Source of the DNA: a bacterium
GTDB taxonomy: Bacteria; Auribacterota; UBA3054; JAPLST01
Assembly: GCA_026398485.1 (NCBI GenBank)
Contig: JAPLST010000370.1
Location: forward strand, 1 to 38,559
DNA length: 38,559 bases
Direction: 5' to 3'
Numbering within the stretch: position 1 is the stretch's first letter; every line of letters starts with the position of its first letter. The notes beneath the pieces were generated by a model. It searched no databases, was not told the origin of the DNA, and saw only the letters and a list, made by a program, of their open reading frames with translations. Of this stretch, positions 1 to 30,542 are shown one piece after another. Both the position numbers and the translations under genes were made by a program.

Positions 1-3000
1 CAGTTGCGAGAAAATCTCGGTGGTCAGGCCGCGCACATTGAGCACATCCGTCAATGATTTGTAGGGTTTGAGCTGGGCGCGGCCGGTGTTATCGAAGCCC
101 AGCGCGATGTTGTGCGCCAGTTCGGGGGTGACGCCGGGCAGGGCGCTCAGCACGCGTTCGCTGGCAGAGTTGATGTTGATCTTGCCAAAGACGGAGCCGG
201 GCGCCAGGTATGCGTAGTCAAACCACGCCGTGCCGGAACAACGCTTGGCGTTCAAGCCGCGCGCGACGATTTGGAGGCGGATGCCGTTTTTGGGCGAGAT
301 GTGCTGGGGATGGATTTTGCCGATGTAGGCCCCGTCGTTTTTCTCATACTGATGCTGGCTGCGGCCGCTGACAATCTCGTAGGCGTCGCCGGCGCGGCCG
401 GTGCGCCGCTCGCCCGGCAGCGGCAATTGGTCGAATGCCTGGGTCTCGAAGTTCCAGGCCGAGACTTCCATGCCGGCATTGAAATTTTCCTCCAAAAACT
501 CGGTCGTGTCAATCGAGTCGCACAAGCCATACAAATAGAGGCCGTAGCTGTTGCGTTCGAGGCCTTTGTTTTGCCATTCCCAGACGCCGACATCGCCATT
601 TTGGCGGGTGTAATAAAACGGGGTGGCATAGCCGGGCCCGACGCTGAACTGGTCGCCTTTTTTGATGCGCAACTGCGCGCCGCTGGGGACGGAATAGCCG
701 GCAACGGTCACGCCATTCTGGGTGCTGTGCGCAATGGCGAAGCTCTCGCCCTTCTGCGGGCCGGAGAGCATGCGCAAAGTCTGGTTGTCCCACTGGCCGG
801 GCTCCCAGTGCGCGTTTTCGGTGGTCACGCCACCGTTGCCGAACGAGGCGACCAGACCGAAGGCCGGCTTCCAGCCCTGGACGTGGGCGCCCGCTTCCTC
901 GGGATCCAGGCGCACGCCCGCGACGGTGAAGTACTTGCCAATCGCCTTGAGCGTCACGGTGCTGGCGGCGCCGCGCCCGCGCGAGCCGATGTTTTGCCAG
1001 TCTTCCGATTTGCGCACTTGTTGAATCTCGCCGATTGAGACATATTGGTTGTCCTTGACAAAGGCGGGCACGTAGGTGCCGGTCGGCATCGAGTGGTTCT
1101 TGGCCAGGCGTTGCGTGCCGCCAAAGGTGGCGCGGCGCGACTTGACCCAATTATAATGGGTCGGGTCTTGTTTTTCGGTCGAGTAATTGATTTCATCCGG
1201 CTCGGTCGAACCATATTCAATGGTGCGGGCGGCGATCTGATTGTACTCGTCCTTGAGCGTCATGGAGAGGAAGCCGCCGGCGTGCGGCATGCCGACGATG
1301 ACGGCATCATCGCCGGCTTGGACGCCGTCCACGACCAAGCCGACCGGCAGCACAAACGACAGCGTGTCGCGCGTGTTGCTCAACACGACTTTGCGGACGC
1401 CAGTCAGGCCGTTGCGCCCGGTGACCGTGCGCTTGGTATGAAACTCGACCATTTCGTATTTCATCTGGTCGGGGCGCCAATTCGAGCCGCTGACCGTGAC
1501 GGAAGTCGGCTGCACGCGCGTGACCTTGTAGCGCACGCCCCAGAGCGAGTCGGGCAATTCAAAGCAGGGATAGGCCTCGTCTTGCGAATCGCCCCAGGTG
1601 CCCGATTGCCGCGAGCCGTATTCCTTGTCAAAAATTTCACGGTTGTTGGTCAGGTAAAAATAGCCATTGGGCGGAATGCTGGGATTGGGATCGTCATAGA
1701 ATTTGTGGGACTGCAGGCTGTAATGCGGGGCCGATTCGATCAGGCCGACCTGATCGGCGTACGCGCCGGTGTTGATCACCACGCGCCAGTTGCGCATGCT
1801 GATCGGCCGCGCGCTGATGTTGATCAACTCAATGATGTCCGGGCGCATGATATAGGCGATATCAAAGGCGGATTTATTGCGATAGGCTTCGGCATTGGAG
1901 GTGCCGGCGCGGGAGAAGCCGGTGCTATTGCCGGAAGTCAGCAAGACGCGGACATAGCCGTTTTTGGCTTGGACGGATTTGCCGTCCTGATAGGCCCAGC
2001 GCAGCAAGTCGATCTGTTGTTTGCCGCCGGGGATTTCCATCGAGGTGTTTTTCAGGTCGGACTGGCGCAGCACCAGCATTTCGCTTTCGCTGTTGCGCGA
2101 AAGGTCGCCGTCGACATCCAGCATGCGATTGTAGCCCTTCCACGGGCCCGAGGGCGTGCCGGTGAAAGGATAGCCGGTGTCGCTGGTGTTGCCCTCGAAG
2201 TTTTGCTCGCCGATATAGACCAAATAGTGCAGGTTGTCGGGCGGCTTGAAGCCGCGATCCCACTGGGTGGGGAACCACCAGCAGTCGCTGGCGCGCGGGA
2301 ACACGCTATAGGTCGCGTCGTGCACGCGCCAGAGCGTGTCAAGGCGCGCGCTGCTCCAGACGGTGGTGCTCAAGGCATTGAACTCATCAACGGAGCGCAG
2401 CCCGACGGTGACCCTGTTCTGGGCGCTCTTGATCACCGGATAATAGGAATAGGCGGCCGCGGCCTGGTTCCACAGTTTGAGGTAGCAGTTTTTCCAAAGG
2501 TCGCCGGGCGAGCCCAATTCACTCTGCAGCTTTTTGAAATCGCGCAGCTTGCTGGCGAGGCCGCCGGGATTGATGATGTCCGTCCCGATCTGGACATCGG
2601 CGCCGTCGGGATATTGCTCGCGCTTGCCGCCGTTGATAAACGTGCCGCCTGCCGCGCGGGTGATGGCGCTAATGGTCCAGCCATAAAAGCGATCACTGCC
2701 GGTCAGATTGTACCAGCGCCCGAGGCGGTGCACCAAATGGTACTGATCATAGGCGGCCGGGTCGCAATGGTCGGCTTCGACGGTGTAACTGCCGTCATTG
2801 GCCATGATTTCATTAAAGCACACGGCTTCGACGCCATACTCGGCGCCAACGGTCGAGAGCACGTGATTCTCGTCGCGATAGTCAATCACATTGGCGATCA
2901 GGTTCTGCAAGCGGCTCGCGACGGGCTCGAAGCGGGCGACATCATTGGCGGCGCGCAGCAGCTTGGTCACTTGGTCGCGCGACCCGACATTCAAGTTGAT

Positions 3001-3888
3001 TTGGCGTTGCCATGTGCGGGTTTGTTCGTCAAAATAGGCGTCGCGCGTGCGGGTGTAGACCGTGCCGGATTGGCGCAGCATGCGGCGCGCATTGGCATTC
3101 AGCTCCTTGCCGCCGGAGGCCTTGCTGGCGACTTCCTGCAGCGAGGAAAACGAGCGGTCATCCCACGCCGGTTGCAGGGCATTAAATTCTTCCGGCTCGT
3201 CGATGCCCTCGTCCGGTTCATCGATCACGCCATTGGCATTATTGTCAATTTCGTCGGCGGCAAATTGGGCGGCGGTATAATTGTCATCCACGCCGCGCTG
3301 GCCGGGGGCGCGATCGCGGCCATAGCGGTAGGCCAGGATATTCTGGCCAAAGGCGAGCGAAATCGGCAAGCCGCGCGTGCTGCCATCCGTCAGCATGGTC
3401 TCAAAAGTGCCGACGCCTTGATGTTGCTGGCGCGGGCTGAGCGCGCTGGCGCTGTTGACATTGATCTTGCCGGCTTCGTCCTGCACCATGATGGCATAGC
3501 GCCCGGCCAGGGTGCCGTCCGTCAGGTGGACATAGATCCAGCGGGCATCGCCGGGCTGGCCGTTGGCATTGGGCGTGCCGTCGATCTCGACGACATCCTC
3601 GCCGCTGTTTTTGCCGGGGGCAAAGGCGGCGCCCCACAGTTCGCCCGGGTCATCCCAGCCGGGCTGATCCATGATATCCTGGCGCAGGATTGCCTGGGCA
3701 TGTTCGAGTGCGGATTTGGTCAGGCATTCGGCTTGCAGGCGCGTCATGCTGACCCGGCCGGCGTCCTGCTCGACGCTCATCAGCACGGCAAACGACGCCG
3801 CCAGTAATGCCAGAATGGTCAACACCGACAAGACCGCAATCAACGCGACTCCGCGGTGTGACTGGCCTGCGCGCCGGACGGTTATCAT
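1..3888 (-). CDS. Giant GspK-like minor pseudopilin (type II secretion / type IV pilus-like machinery). The 3' end runs off the left window edge (>=1296 codons).
   Basis: The ORF track omits it because the frame has no stop inside the window. Reading the reverse complement from ATG 3888-3886 (GAGGTGA Shine-Dalgarno at 3900-3894) gives MITVRRAGQSHRGVALIAVLSVLTILALLAASFAVLMSVEQ..., the hydrophobic N-terminal pseudopilin helix seen in GspK. Further in comes ...GRYAIMVQDEAGKINVNSAS... . At the window edge the translation reads ...FGKININSASERVLSALPGVTPELAHNIA...SLTDVLNVRGLTTEIFSQL, which are helix-hairpin-helix motifs as in GspK. No listed minus-strand ORF uses this frame. The plus-strand ORFs 112..1038 and 1045..3807 sit in the exact codon-opposite register with Ala/Gly/Arg-rich composition, so they are shadow ORFs. 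Confidence 0.75.
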   Translation of the reverse strand, partial: MITVRRAGQSHRGVALIAVLSVLTILALLAASFAVLMSVEQDAGRVSMTRLQAECLTKSALEHAQAILRQDIMDQPGWDDPGELWGAAFAPGKNSGEDVVEIDGTPNANGQPGDARWIYVHLTDGTLAGRYAIMVQDEAGKINVNSASALSPRQQHQGVGTFETMLTDGSTRGLPISLAFGQNILAYRYGRDRAPGQRGVDDNYTAAQFAADEIDNNANGVIDEPDEGIDEPEEFNALQPAWDDRSFSSLQEVASKASGGKELNANARRMLRQSGTVYTRTRDAYFDEQTRTWQRQINLNVGSRDQVTKLLRAANDVARFEPVASRLQNLIANVIDYRDENHVLSTVGAEYGVEAVCFNEIMANDGSYTVEADHCDPAAYDQYHLVHRLGRWYNLTGSDRFYGWTISAITRAAGGTFINGGKREQYPDGADVQIGTDIINPGGLASKLRDFKKLQSELGSPGDLWKNCYLKLWNQAAAAYSYYPVIKSAQNRVTVGLRSVDEFNALSTTVWSSARLDTLWRVHDATYSVFPRASDCWWFPTQWDRGFKPPDNLHYLVYIGEQNFEGNTSDTGYPFTGTPSGPWKGYNRMLDVDGDLSRNSESEMLVLRQSDLKNTSMEIPGGKQQIDLLRWAYQDGKSVQAKNGYVRVLLTSGNSTGFSRAGTSNAEAYRNKSAFDIAYIMRPDIIELINISARPISMRNWRVVINTGAYADQVGLIESAPHYSLQSHKFYDDPNPSIPPNGYFYLTNNREIFDKEYGSRQSGTWGDSQDEAYPCFELPDSLWGVRYKVTRVQPTSVTVSGSNWRPDQMKYEMVEFHTKRTVTGRNGLTGVRKVVLSNTRDTLSFVLPVGLVVDGVQAGDDAVIVGMPHAGGFLSMTLKDEYNQIAARTIEYGSTEPDEINYSTEKQDPTHYNWVKSRRATFGGTQRLAKNHSMPTGTYVPAFVKDNQYVSIGEIQQVRKSEDWQNIGSRGRGAASTVTLKAIGKYFTVAGVRLDPEEAGAHVQGWKPAFGLVASFGNGGVTTENAHWEPGQWDNQTLRMLSGPQKGESFAIAHSTQNGVTVAGYSVPSGAQLRIKKGDQFSVGPGYATPFYYTRQNGDVGVWEWQNKGLERNSYGLYLYGLCDSIDTTEFLEENFNAGMEVSAWNFETQAFDQLPLPGERRTGRAGDAYEIVSGRSQHQYEKNDGAYIGKIHPQHISPKNGIRLQIVARGLNAKRCSGTAWFDYAYLAPGSVFGKININSASERVLSALPGVTPELAHNIALGFDNTGRAQLKPYKSLTDVLNVRGLTTEIFSQL

Positions 3889-4017
3889 CGTACTCACCTC
3901 AAGGTTGTGACAAACAGGGCCGGGTATGCGCGCCACGCCGGCCATGGTCATGGCATGCGCAACCGTTTGCACATGATAACACATCACCGGCACATGTGTC
4001 AAGCGGCTGCCGGAACT

Positions 4018-4065
4018 GGAGGGATGGAGGGATGGAGGGATGGAGGGATGGAGGGATGGAGGGAT
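4018..4065 (+). repeat. Perfect tandem octanucleotide microsatellite (GGAGGGAT)x6 in the divergent intergenic region
   Basis: Direct reading gives ggagggat repeated six times without mismatch. This creates six GGG tracts separated by 5-nt ATGGA loops. It lies 130 nt upstream of the minus-strand ATG (3888) and about 118 nt upstream of the -35 box of the plus-strand operon promoter. Confidence 0.95.
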
Positions 4066-4182
4066 ATTACAGCGGCAACGGCGTGCGCAGCTACATTCCG
4101 GCACCAATCACAACAGAAGGTTGACTTGTGCTTGCATCTTAAAACCTTTAGCATCCACATTTCAGAAGCTGGGGGCGGTATA

Positions 4183-4211
4183 TTGACATGCACATAAAGC
4201 TGTGCTATACT
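4183..4211 (+). promoter_or_regulatory. Putative sigma70-type promoter with extended -10 for the 4264..25933 operon
   Basis: TTGACA (4183-4188), a 17-nt spacer, then TGcTATACT (TG at 4203-4204, TATACT at 4206-4211). It lies 52 nt upstream of ATG 4264, and GGAGG sits at 4255-4259. Confidence 0.6.
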
Positions 4212-5952: not shown

Positions 5953-5961
5953 GGATTGCCG

Positions 5962-8067
5962 ATGCGATCAGCGACCGTCTCTCTTGTCTTGTTCGGATTT
6001 CTGGCCGGTAGTCTGACCAGCCTTGCAGCCACACGCTATGTTGCGCTGGACGGCAGCAACGTGGCGCCGTACGCGTCATGGGCCACGGCCGCGACGAATA
6101 TCCCGGTGGCAGTCGCCGGCGCGCTGGATGGCGACACGATCCTGGTGTCGAGCGGGCGCTATATCGTCGGCACGGCCGGCGATGAAACATCCGGCAGCGG
6201 CGTGATGCTGACCAATGCAATTGTTCTTGCCGCAGTGTTCGGGCCGGCCGTGACGACCATTGATGCGTTGGGCTGGCACAAGCGCTGCGTCTATCTTGGC
6301 CACCCCGGCGCGGTGTTGCGCGGCTTTACGCTGGAAGGCGGCTATGCGCGCATCAATCTTGGAGCACAAACCTTTCCGGTCAGTTGTGGCGGCGGCGTGT
6401 TTTGCGACGGCGGCGGGCTGGTCGAGAACTGCGTGGTGTCGTTCGGGCGCGCCGGCTTGCAGGGTGGTGCGGCGTTTCTCAATGGCGGCGGCGAGCTGCG
6501 CAGTTGCCTGCTGCGCGACAGCGAGGCGCCGGAAAGCGGCGGCGTGTTTTGCAGCAATGGCGGCGCCGTGGTCAATTGCACCGTGGTGGGGAACTGGACC
6601 CAAGGCACGAATTTGCCGGGCGGCGCCTGGCTCATTAACGGCGGCCGGCTGTTGAACAGCATTGTGGTTTACAACAGCAACAATGTCGGCACCACCGCCG
6701 ATGTACATACGCAAGGCGGCGGCTGGCAATGCGACTATTCGTGCGTTAATGCGGGGATGCCCGGCACGGGCAACATCAGCACCAATCCGGTTTTCAGTGG
6801 CTGGCGGCTGCAGCGCGCGTCGCCCTGCCGCAACGCCGGCACGAACCTGCCGTGGATGACGAGTGCGACCGACGTGGAGGGTTCGCCGCGCATTCTCGAA
6901 GAGATTGTGGACATGGGCGCGTATGAAACGCCCGCCTTCTATTATGTTGCCACCAATGGCGGCCAGCGCTATCCGTACACCTCGTGGGCGATGGCGTCCA
7001 CCAACATCGCTGATGCCCTGCGCGCGGCGACGCCGCAGACGACCGTGCTGGTCTCGAATGGCGTCTACACGGAAGCGGCCGTGCTCATCCCCGGCACGAA
7101 CATAACGTTGCAGAGTGTTGCTGGCGCGGCGGTCACCACCATTCGCGGCGGCCCCGGCCGGCGCTGCCTCGACCTGCGCTATGCCAGCACGGTTGTGGCC
7201 GGCTTTACCTTGACCGGCACTACGCTGACCAACGCGATCGATGCGAGTGGCGCGGGTGTGCGCATGACGCAAGGCACCTTGCGCGAGTGCGTGGTCGCCG
7301 GCAACACGGCATGGGAAGCGGGCGGCGGCATCTCGATGGCGGGCGGCTTGGTGCAAAACTGCCTTGTGTACAGCAACGCCGCGCCGCAATTTGGCGGCGG
7401 CGTCGCGCTCGCGGGCGGCCTGCTGGAAAATTGCATCATCCGCAACAACCGCGGTGGCTGGGCCGGCGGCGGCCTCGCCTTGCAAGGTGCGGGCACGGCG
7501 CGCTCGTGCCTGATCGTCAGCAACCTGACGCCGGCCGATCCGATTCCGGATGCCGGTAATATGCGCACCGGCGGCGGCGGCATCTTCGCGCTCTCCATGG
7601 GCACCCTTGAGAACTGCACCATCGCCGCCAACCTCAGCAGCAATGATGCCGGCGGCATCTTCTGCATTGATTTTTTCGGCGGCGGCACGACGACCCTGCT
7701 GGTCAACACGATTTTGTACGGCAACACGGCGGTCGCCGCTGCGCCGAATTACACGGGCGGCACCTTGTGGTTTGAGCATGGCTGTCTGCAGCCCGCGCCG
7801 GCGCCCGCCCAGGATGGCGGCGGCAATCTCGCGCTCGATCCGCTCTTTGCCGGCGGGTTCCAATTGACGTTCTTGTCGCCCTGCCGCGACACAGGCATGA
7901 CGCAAGCGTGGATGATTAGCGCCACCGACTTGGCCGGCAATCCGCGCATGACCGGCGCCAGTGTCGACATGGGCGCCTATGAATTTGTGCCGGAACCGTG
8001 GCTGGCCGCCGCGCCGCTGGTGGCGCTGCTGTGCCAATTGCGGCGCACGGCGTGGCGTGCATGCTGA
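5962..8067 (+). CDS. Right-handed beta-helix repeat protein with two tandem modules and a PEP-CTERM sorting tail (701 aa)
   Basis: The track ORF 5956..8067 starts at TTG. ATG 5962 follows AAGGA (5951-5955). The signal peptide is MRSATVSLVLFGFLAGSLTSLAA. There are two modules, each opening with a YV-A-x-x-G...PY-x-SW-x-A-x-TNI...VLVS-x-G-x-Y type head (TRYVALDGSNVAPYASWATAATNI and FYYVATNGGQRYPYTSWAMASTNI). Each then has Gly/Asn-rich 22-25 aa PbH1-like turns (GGGVF, GGAAF, GGGIS, GGGVA, GGGLA). Each closes with NPxF...SPCR[ND][AT]G...D[VL][EA]G[SN]PR...VDMGAYE. The C-terminus VPEPWLAAAPLVALLCQLRRTAWRAC (7987-8064) has the PEP motif, a hydrophobic helix and a basic tail. Confidence 0.9.
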   Translation: MRSATVSLVLFGFLAGSLTSLAATRYVALDGSNVAPYASWATAATNIPVAVAGALDGDTILVSSGRYIVGTAGDETSGSGVMLTNAIVLAAVFGPAVTTIDALGWHKRCVYLGHPGAVLRGFTLEGGYARINLGAQTFPVSCGGGVFCDGGGLVENCVVSFGRAGLQGGAAFLNGGGELRSCLLRDSEAPESGGVFCSNGGAVVNCTVVGNWTQGTNLPGGAWLINGGRLLNSIVVYNSNNVGTTADVHTQGGGWQCDYSCVNAGMPGTGNISTNPVFSGWRLQRASPCRNAGTNLPWMTSATDVEGSPRILEEIVDMGAYETPAFYYVATNGGQRYPYTSWAMASTNIADALRAATPQTTVLVSNGVYTEAAVLIPGTNITLQSVAGAAVTTIRGGPGRRCLDLRYASTVVAGFTLTGTTLTNAIDASGAGVRMTQGTLRECVVAGNTAWEAGGGISMAGGLVQNCLVYSNAAPQFGGGVALAGGLLENCIIRNNRGGWAGGGLALQGAGTARSCLIVSNLTPADPIPDAGNMRTGGGGIFALSMGTLENCTIAANLSSNDAGGIFCIDFFGGGTTTLLVNTILYGNTAVAAAPNYTGGTLWFEHGCLQPAPAPAQDGGGNLALDPLFAGGFQLTFLSPCRDTGMTQAWMISATDLAGNPRMTGASVDMGAYEFVPEPWLAAAPLVALLCQLRRTAWRAC

Positions 8068-30204: not shown

Positions 30205-30542
30205 TCTGCGCGCTCTACGCTGGCAGCTACCGTGGCAGAATCGCCGCAAGGGAATACGGCTTCCTTTCTTATAGCGGAATTTCAGTGCCCGGGGCGCTTT
30301 TATTTGCAGTCCTTGACCGGTTCTGCTACACTGGCATAACGGCACGTGCCCAGGAACAGCCAGCAAAAGTCACAACACGTCTCTTTCTACTTTGCAGTGT
30401 CCTTGTAGCCGCCCGCGGCGAGGGCGGCTTCTCCAGCCGCGGTCATCCGCGCTCCGCGCCGTTGGCGGGACGGGACTCCAAGCAGGCGCCCGCGGCCACA
30501 ATAATAGTCTATAATTGAAGAACCATCAATAATGCAACGATC

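Follow-up and report, generated by a model that had tools for sequence, protein, structure and literature searches.

Tip subunits govern what a type IV pilus or a secretion pseudopilus touches and when its growth starts. The reference subunit used here is GspK, also known as XcpX, the minor pseudopilin of the type II secretion system (T2SS), a protein of about 330 aa (NF037980; PF21687 and PF03934; PDB 3CI0 chain K and 5VTM chain X). GspK contains a prepilin-type leader with Gly at position −1 and no Glu at +5, a long α-1 helix, a hairpin ending in G-K-I-N-x-N, an α-domain with an acidic loop, helix-hairpin-helix (HhH)-like repeats and a C-terminal strand region in cis. Modular pilins have been described (PMC8179133), and CpaL, ComZ and GspK have been grouped as PilK-family proteins which combine large insertions with a C-terminal strand in cis (PMC13533445). 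CpaL of the Caulobacter Tad pili (~600 aa) and ComZ of Thermus consist of a minor-pilin module, a large middle module serving adhesion or binding, and a returning C-terminal strand (PMC13533445, PMC8179133). Both are single-copy and encoded with their own pilus genes. The tip adhesins PilC/PilY1 and MshQ of type IV pili are not pilins themselves but separate proteins with a β-propeller. A C-terminal strand holds them on the tip by filling in the sheet of PilK (PMC13533445).

The window analysed here is the whole of contig C182 (JAPLST010000370.1; 38,559 nt) of an Auribacterota bacterium. A minus-strand gene for a giant minor pilin of the GspK type lies at 1..3888 and is confirmed as a real coding gene. 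No stop interrupts the reading frame between 4107 and base 1, where it leaves the window at the contig start. The ATG at 3888 is shared by the orthologues P0004, P0005 and P0006 and is preceded, 5 nt upstream, by a Shine-Dalgarno-like GAGGTGA (3894..3900, minus strand) which is conserved in L002 and L006. A longer reading upstream of this ATG is disfavoured, as the promoter-like site at 4002..3973 falls within it. Compared with two orthologues, the backbone evolves at a dN/dS of 0.17-0.21, which indicates a working gene under purifying selection, far beyond chance.

As the window is the entire contig, the gene cannot be extended leftward. Its missing 3′ end was not found elsewhere in the assembly; contig C154 corresponds to the sequence that follows the L002 orthologue, but it lacks the tail of the gene. 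Full-length orthologues measure 1363-1382 aa with 82-86% identity to the window protein, so that only ~70 C-terminal residues are missing from the 1296 codons present. The preliminary description had proposed a gene with a Shine-Dalgarno site and ATG, of at least 1296 aa against ~330 aa for a typical GspK. Each of these points holds, and the protein has about four times the normal GspK size. It had also called the gene invisible, which is true of the ORF track, where open-ended ORFs are dropped, but not of the public gene calls, which already include it (P0003).

The protein begins with a class III (prepilin-type) leader of residues 1-13 (3850..3888, minus strand), assigned from the sequence and from alignment to GspK. 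The leader ends ...QSHRG and is followed by VALIAVLSVLTILALL, giving a predicted mature N-terminus VALIA... without Glu at +5. Gly13, at position −1, is invariant across 60 family members, and in hhalign its region aligns with the QRGVALL start of true GspK. The leader opens a GspK-homologous module of residues 1-347 (2848..3888, minus strand; AlphaFold model pLDDT 77). This consists of the long α-1 helix (13-74), a β-hairpin at 115-133 followed by GKINVNSAS, and an α-domain which in the family bears the acidic loop DxIDNNANGxIDExDEGIDEPEE.

Profile comparison shows that this module is homologous to GspK. When the family was aligned by hhalign to 28 true GspK sequences, the probability was 97.2% (E 3.4e-11, 253 columns), with family positions 9-347 on GspK 4-265. 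The 28-sequence profile was needed for this, as hhalign against single GspK sequences spanned the N-terminal helix only. The NCBIfam GspK model (NF037980) matches residues 12-167 of the window protein (E 3e-11, 43.2 bits) and reaches 56-61 bits (E 3e-15) on full-length orthologues. In these the match is split, with the N-terminus on profile positions 2-130 and the C-terminus on 213-282, and other copies in the same genome show the same split. The pseudopilin-type N-terminal helix and the GspK likeness claimed at first sight are thereby borne out by a profile match, but scores of 43-61 bits lie far under the curated NCBI cut-off of 130.

Pfam T2SSK gave only 12-15 bits against a cut-off of 24.2. 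A sequence search of the PDB with the family profile returned only HhH proteins, together with GspK at E 0.46. The best Foldseek match of the residue 1-350 model in the PDB had E=2 and none was to a solved GspK chain, and GspK was absent among the Foldseek matches listed for the 1038-residue C-terminal model. As both queries are fragments, the absence of a GspK fold match is a weak negative.

The module is followed by a family-specific body of ~880 residues (residues 351-1230; 199..2838, minus strand), delimited by modelling and by fold and sequence searches. The preliminary description had placed roughly 1000 extra residues between the N-terminal helix and the HhH region. The size agrees with the 880-1070 or so residues found between the GspK module and the HhH. 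The placement required refinement: the insert does lie between the N-terminus and the HhH, but it follows a complete GspK α-domain rather than the helix itself, because family 9-347 aligns to GspK 4-265. Most of the body is predicted to consist of β-sandwich or jelly-roll modules, one of them resembling a lamin-tail domain. The model of an 82% orthologue, a C-terminal fragment of 1038 residues, is confidently folded and β-rich (pLDDT 83, pTM 0.77). A search with the body alone recovered just 71 representatives among 1.84 billion. Nearly all of the long matches occupy the same position within proteins of ~1300-1400 aa, the others being shorter pieces or part matches. By sequence search, the body is confined to the giant-pilin family and occurs in no other protein family.

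With the large model as query, Foldseek found only local or string-of-sandwich matches of low TM in the PDB and BFVD, and the phage-tail fold matches were rejected as homology. The local fold resemblances are all of binding type (jelly-roll/CBM/Eph-LBD, lamin Ig and phage tail-tip-like strings), and their very low TM-scores make ‘binding modules’ a soft description. No enzyme family was found in the giant pilin. A PilY1 domain was not detected either, in a search whose control was also without a match. The lamin-tail-domain-like stretch covers residues 684-772 (IELINISARPISMRNWRVVINTG ... PPNGYFYLTNN; 1573..1839, minus strand), as placed by Pfam LTD and by motif positions. The LTD match to these residues has E 0.0014, which falls short of the cut-off, and more than 20 family members have a precomputed PF00932 assignment.

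Within the body lies a hypervariable cassette of ~146 residues (residues 385-530; 2299..2736, minus strand), delimited by a drop in identity and by dS. Identity between P0005 and the window protein is 33-44% in the cassette and 96-98% elsewhere, and the cassette dS is 1.23 as against 0.17-0.21 in the flanks. Three cassette types are common to different backbones. These comparisons show the cassette to be a mosaic that recombination has exchanged among alleles which are otherwise nearly identical.

The C-terminal region opens with GKININSAS and an HhH domain at residues 1236-1296 (1..183, minus strand), which is cut by the contig end. Pfam HHH_3 matches these residues with E 7e-9. The HhH motifs at the window edge had been noted at the outset, as had the motifs INVNSAS and ININSAS, which are located at residues 142-148 and 1237-1243, respectively. 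The C-terminal part of the split NF037980 match falls on the HhH region of the orthologues, and true GspK sequences sometimes carry HHH_3 matches too. The ComEA model (TIGR01259), which describes small DNA-binding HhH proteins anchored in the membrane, reached 19.5 bits against a cut-off of 152, with the HhH repeat alone matching. In the orthologues there are three long closing β-strands (model strands 981-992, 1006-1018 and 1033-1037), before which the window copy ends, and the C-terminal strand region around TTRSDQFRV hardly varies among family members. The HhH at the window edge is better described as an extra HhH preceding the closing strands.

The GspK features listed at the outset recur in the family, the C-terminal strand region in cis as a prediction. 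The family differs from GspK in its length (~1370 aa), in the ~880 residues of β modules and the extra HhH after the α-domain, in scoring far below the GspK family cut-off, in never occurring in a gspG-H-I-J-K operon and in its at least 10 copies per genome. A large insert between a pilin module and a C-terminal strand is already known from the CpaL/ComZ type, and sequence and model predict the same architecture here, with an apical position likewise proposed. The insert of the family is two to four times larger than that of CpaL/ComZ and unrelated in sequence. The genes of the family are orphan, occur in many copies and contain a recombining cassette. In contrast to PilC/PilY1 and MshQ, whose body is of similar mass, the body of the giant pilin is fused in cis.

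Verru_Chthon cassette protein A (TIGR02600, a profile of 1296 positions) is of similar giant length and is defined with the adjacent pilin-like cassette proteins B, C and D. Both ends of its profile match the family weakly (1-60 and 1198-1254), whereas the middle ~1100 positions are unmatched and the family scores 19-36 bits against a cut-off of 332.3. No pilin-like B, C or D partners occur by the family copies, on the contigs with copies or in 23 related loci. A literature search on TIGR02600 and Verru_Chthon found nothing.

Full-length members of the family were found only within the order of this bacterium, where 18 of 18 genomes carry 6-10 or more copies. At least 10 copies are scattered through the present genome. 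Some copies form tandem arrays of 2-4, and the family occupies 1-2% of some 2-Mb genomes. No Glu5-type pilin gene was found within ±10 kb in the 23 related loci, nor a Glu5-type pilin ORF on any contig carrying a copy, and family members have no linked GspI/J partner. The gspG/H/I/J-like or secretin genes that might have been expected to follow are likewise absent from all 23 loci. Orphan copies of the family are numerous, and the genes for the pilus machinery lie elsewhere. The genome contains 7 ATPases, 8 secretins, a single prepilin peptidase and about 10 ordinary pilin genes. A pseudopilin cluster with GspE/F-like genes is located on C124, a 380-aa GspK on C485, and one of the ATPases, a 345-aa protein which is PilT-like by length only, on C454. 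The family is set apart by its fourfold GspK size, its restriction to one uncultured order, its constant orphan state and its recombining cassette.

The best explanation, with a probability of roughly 0.6, is that the protein belongs to the GspK/PilK family as an apical minor pilin, or cap, with an inserted β-sandwich body that is borne on the tip. The hydrophobic α-1 helix would take the protein into the inner membrane, and the prepilin peptidase would cleave after Gly13. As Glu+5 is missing, the protein would serve only as the first subunit of the fibre. As is known from GspK and CpaL, the C-terminal strands would close the pilin sheet in cis, and the completed sheet would allow the docking of GspI/GspJ-type partners encoded elsewhere. 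The major pilin would polymerise beneath into a type IV filament, and the ~100-kDa body would be carried on its tip. PilY1 and PilC have a mass well over 100 kDa, and their presence on the tip indicates that the machine lets through bodies as large as this. The choice of machine would fall among the few filament machines of the cell, with the copies as competing, alternative tips. The ligand of the body is most likely external, for example a surface, a polymer or another cell, and the cassette probably sets or diversifies this specificity. Alternative tips, if true, would show how one filament machine gets many specificities. They would also serve as a natural test case for the recent ‘C-terminal strand licensing’ model, as the strand is more than 1000 residues from the sheet.

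It is unlikely that the protein is instead a non-filament bitopic protein of the inner membrane or cell surface, whose N-terminus is a pilin-like anchor and whose large body is exposed in the periplasm or on the surface. The constant orphan state without linked pilin partners would suit such a protein, as would the number of copies relative to the ordinary pilin genes and the lack of a fold match to solved GspK (with fragment queries). Against this, the prepilin cleavage Gly is invariant, the entire GspK α-domain is conserved and the TTRSDQFRV region is near-invariant, a constraint to be expected only where formation of a pilin sheet and a tip complex is required.

The 375-bp control region which the gene shares with a divergent giant-protein operon is real, with one strong promoter-like site per strand. 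These are TTGACA-18-(TG)TATCAT for the pilin gene (3973..4002, minus strand; 11/12 matches, fully conserved in both orthologues) and TTGACA-17-TATACT for the operon (4183..4211, plus strand; 11/12 matches). The pilin gene indeed looks like the first of its transcription unit, and like a monocistronic one, given its own promoter-like site and downstream neighbours which vary between orthologues. Its conserved 5′ leader has no significant RNA fold (z −0.26) and is not common to other copies. As its conservation equals that of the coding backbone, no riboswitch-like element is proposed.

It had been suggested that this arrangement reflects co-regulation, or a pseudopilus that displays or exports the operon products. 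A T2SS pseudopilus cap dedicated to the divergent operon, which recognises, displays or exports the giants and is co-regulated through the 375-bp region, is an improbable reading. The back-to-back promoter-like sites are ~180 bp apart, the pilin gene is kept beside the 573/703/3228-aa operon at 80-84% identity in L006/G063, and a few other copies adjoin large proteins (C243, C400 and C129). However, the pairing occurs in this one congeneric genome only, where plain synteny explains it, and is absent for other copies and distant orthologues; a 65% relative is located among housekeeping genes. The best homologue of the 703-aa protein outside the genus (G057:C836) is on a contig not among the giant-pilin places listed, and this protein is built of a module with more than 60 occurrences per genome, which makes chance adjacency likely. 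Copies adjoin genes of ≥1000 aa in 3 of 13 cases against a background of 11.5% (p=0.18), so there is no enrichment, and with the limited pairing this leaves co-regulation or export of the operon products as speculation.

DNA-binding HhH motifs carry a G-h-G hairpin. A DNA receptor on the tip of a competence pilus, with a ComEA-like HhH binding DNA as proposed for Thermus ComZ, is very unlikely: HHH_3 and ComEA-type matches exist and some sources name relatives ‘ComE-like DNA-binding protein’, but the region also matches GspK positions 213-282, true GspK proteins likewise give HHH_3 matches, the hairpins are PGVT and RGLT, and at least 10 copies with a hypervariable cassette fit poorly.

If the giant pilins are apical caps, the 10-14 orphan giants per genome could, with a rather low probability, form a library of interchangeable caps. 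One scaffold would carry differing surfaces and a shuffled cassette, and one or a few machines would be re-tipped with differing specificities. Such a library can be likened to the diversification of receptor-binding proteins by phages. Unstable promoter-proximal repeats may tune the expression of individual caps. One example is the octamer microsatellite (TCCATCCC)x6 at 4017..4065 (TRF, 6.1 copies at 100%), which lies directly upstream of the −35 hexamer of the pilin gene; this array is absent from L006 and much longer in L002.

The product of the minus-strand gene at window positions 1..3888 is best read as an apical, modular tip pilin. The minus strand is a single open frame from 1 to 4107, running off the left edge, and the uninterrupted gene of the preliminary description is thereby upheld. 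Its ATG at 3888 is preceded by the Shine-Dalgarno site GAGGTGA (3900-3894), as described, and is also the start of the closest orthologues. A public gene call, P0003, gives a longer upstream reading of 1331 aa. A strong promoter-like site (TTGACA-18-TG-TATCAT, 4002..3973) lies within this longer reading, which favours ATG 3888 as the start. The gene cannot be extended leftward because the window is the entire contig, from an assembly of 513 contigs (86% complete), and the missing last ~210 nt were not found elsewhere in that assembly. Orthologues continue for ~70 residues beyond the edge, where the strand region CNLxTxRSDQFRV... is conserved. A word-indexed search gave at least 159 relatives, nearly all of 1300-1420 aa. 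Its nearest relatives share 86% identity (two proteins, 1363 and 1382 aa) or 82% (1367 aa), which bears out the claimed oversize of at least 1296 aa, and the backbone dN/dS is 0.17-0.21 against two orthologues. The gene is real and nearly complete.

The protein is assigned to the GspK/PilK superfamily by profile homology, although it fails the curated GspK model; the earlier GspK-like label is retained with this qualification. Residues 12-167 match positions 2-129 of the NCBIfam GspK profile (E 3e-11), well below the model cut-off. Full-length orthologues match this model twice, the N-terminus on 2-130 and the C-terminus on 213-282 (E 3e-15), and the split match recurs in other copies of this genome. 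Against a reference profile built from 28 true GspK proteins, the family profile aligned with a probability of 97.2% (E 3.4e-11) across 253 columns that pair family positions 9-347 with GspK 4-265. The alignment spans the leader and alpha-1 helix, a G-K-I-N-x-N strand, the acidic loop of the alpha-domain and a second N-x-N motif. The prepilin cleavage residue, Gly13, is invariant in 60 family members. Position +5 is not Glu, and absence of Glu at +5 has been reported for all PilK/GspK-type apical subunits (PMC13533445). The motifs INVNSAS (residues 142-148) and ININSAS (1237-1243) are present as described, and the helix-hairpin-helix at the window edge is an HHH_3 match covering residues 1236-1296. 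As true GspK sequences sometimes give HHH_3 matches too, a ‘ComEA-like’ label is no argument against GspK. No solved GspK chain was matched by either model fragment in Foldseek, and in a PDB sequence search GspK reached only E 0.46. Among the family clusters listed, at least P0063 carries the NCBI name GspK. Another giant protein, described by TIGR02600, matches this family weakly at its ends.

The GspK-like module ends near residue 347. The large insert claimed before the helix-hairpin-helix, ~1000 residues, exists and is refined to a body of residues 351-1230. In the AlphaFold model of the 82% orthologue this body has a confident fold (pLDDT 83, pTM 0.77), almost entirely beta, followed by a further GKININSAS-HhH unit and then three long strands. 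Fold searches of the body gave only weak local resemblances (TM-scores ~0.1) to jelly-roll, CBM and ephrin-receptor ligand-binding domains, the lamin Ig fold, Cry-toxin sandwich domains and the sandwich strings of phage tail-tip proteins. The only Pfam match in the insert is a sub-threshold lamin-tail domain (residues 684-772), a domain also on record in more than 20 family members. It may be interrupted by an insertion of ~300 residues, to judge from the motifs CFNEIMAN (357) and IELINIS...WRVVINTG (686). No enzyme family matched the insert. The body alone, searched against 1.84 billion representatives, matched 71 proteins; nearly all long matches sit at the same position in proteins of ~1300-1400 aa, the others being shorter pieces or partial matches. 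The body is accordingly classed, by homology searching, as a lineage-specific invention.

Within the body, residues 385-530 (nt 2299-2736, minus strand) form a cassette with 33-44% identity against 96-98% elsewhere in one orthologue. Its synonymous divergence is 1.23, compared with 0.17-0.21 in the flanks, which indicates that the segment was replaced and is not merely fast-evolving. There are three cassette types, whose spread across backbones conflicts with overall relatedness. The cassette is also the least conserved stretch across the family.

We infer cleavage, tip location and binding of the giant pilin. A prepilin peptidase would cleave the protein, which, being without Glu+5, would take the first place in the fibre, and the pilin sheet would be closed by C-terminal strands of the protein itself. 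Such C-terminal strand closure licenses tip-complex formation for GspK and CpaL (PMC13533445). The body would be borne on the filament tip. The large tip adhesins PilY1/PilC and MshQ (~1200 residues) are carried there (PMC13533445), making so large a body feasible. Both the beta-sandwich architecture of the body and the exchange of its cassette suggest that it binds ligands, with a specificity that has been diversified. Precedents exist for modular pilins and for insertion-bearing PilK-family proteins (PMC8179133, PMC13533445). New here are the position of the insert, now fixed exactly behind a complete GspK alpha-domain, a body confined to this family, the recombining cassette and an order-wide multi-copy distribution.

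Among 79 genomes of the phylum surveyed, full-length members occur in all 18 of the window's order, each with 6-10 or more scored matches even at 1.4-2.2 Mb. In genomes outside the order, matching is confined to the N-terminal ~380 residues, within proteins of 850-1140 aa. The copies in this genome number at least 10 and up to 14, and many of them lie at contig ends. The closest, 56-73% identical (C74:1439-5574, minus), breaks at ~3418-3424 into two frames that overlap (718 and 661 aa), either through an assembly error or because this copy is a frameshifted pseudogene. In related MAGs, copies stand in tandem, two to four per array; one MAG carries four head-to-tail genes on an 18-kb contig (L005 909-17698), with arrays of three and two at loci L009 and L008.

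The pilin genes of the gspG/H/I/J kind that might have followed the gene are not there: no Glu5-type pilin gene lies on any copy-bearing contig or within 10 kb at 23 related loci. That there are so many orphan copies suggests alternative tips serving a few machines. Two gene sets elsewhere are candidate partner machines: a G/H/I/J-like cluster ending in a 617-aa K/PilX-like gene, with GspE/F-like genes (C124:4135-7757), and a normal 380-aa GspK between GspF- and GspG-like genes (C485:289-1428). The acidic D-x-N-x-N-G loop of the latter GspK is similar to that of the giant. The genome encodes eight secretins, one prepilin peptidase (on C97) and seven T2SSE-type ATPases, including a 345-aa protein on C454 read from its length as PilT-like.

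A further new point is a test, negative in outcome, of the idea that the divergent pairing with the neighbouring plus-strand operon is conserved. The 573-, 703- and 3228-aa genes keep this arrangement, at 80-84% identity, only at L006, the locus of the 82% orthologue in G063, the sole other genome in the genus. The 86% orthologue (L002) is uninformative, since its contig stops inside an octamer repeat. A 65% relative is located among housekeeping genes, and the contig of the best 703-aa homologue outside the genus is absent among the listed giant-pilin places. The module that makes up the 703-aa protein recurs more than 60 times per genome. Giant-pilin copies show no enrichment beside genes of at least 1000 aa (3/13 vs 11.5%, p=0.18). 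Simple synteny between close relatives accounts for the pairing. Downstream genes differ between the orthologues (sugar epimerases at L002, repeat proteins at L006), neither of two scans detected a same-strand terminator 3′ of the gene, and at L002 the following gene has a separate promoter-like site. The pilin gene appears to be monocistronic.

The module of the 703-aa neighbour (5956-8067, plus strand) is ~180 residues long and lacks a Pfam match; several of the order's larger genomes have 45-80 matches to it each, the rumen-type genus with small genomes none. On a crude ORF call, 152 of 3693 genes in this genome (~4%) encode proteins of at least 1000 aa, and two of the four ORFs of at least 2000 aa are in the window. 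An octamer array, (TCCATCCC)x6, lies at 4017-4065, immediately upstream of the pilin gene's -35 hexamer. It is far longer and degenerate in the 86% orthologue (L002 1-150, at the contig end) and missing in the 82% orthologue; changes in copy number could strengthen or weaken the promoter of either divergent unit. A dispersed REP/MITE-like repeat of ~80-130 bp, 85-95% identical, occupies many intergenic regions of the genome, occurring at window 30383-30445, at L006 14227-14355 and on dozens of contigs of this assembly, and also downstream of the orthologous pilin genes at L002 and L006.
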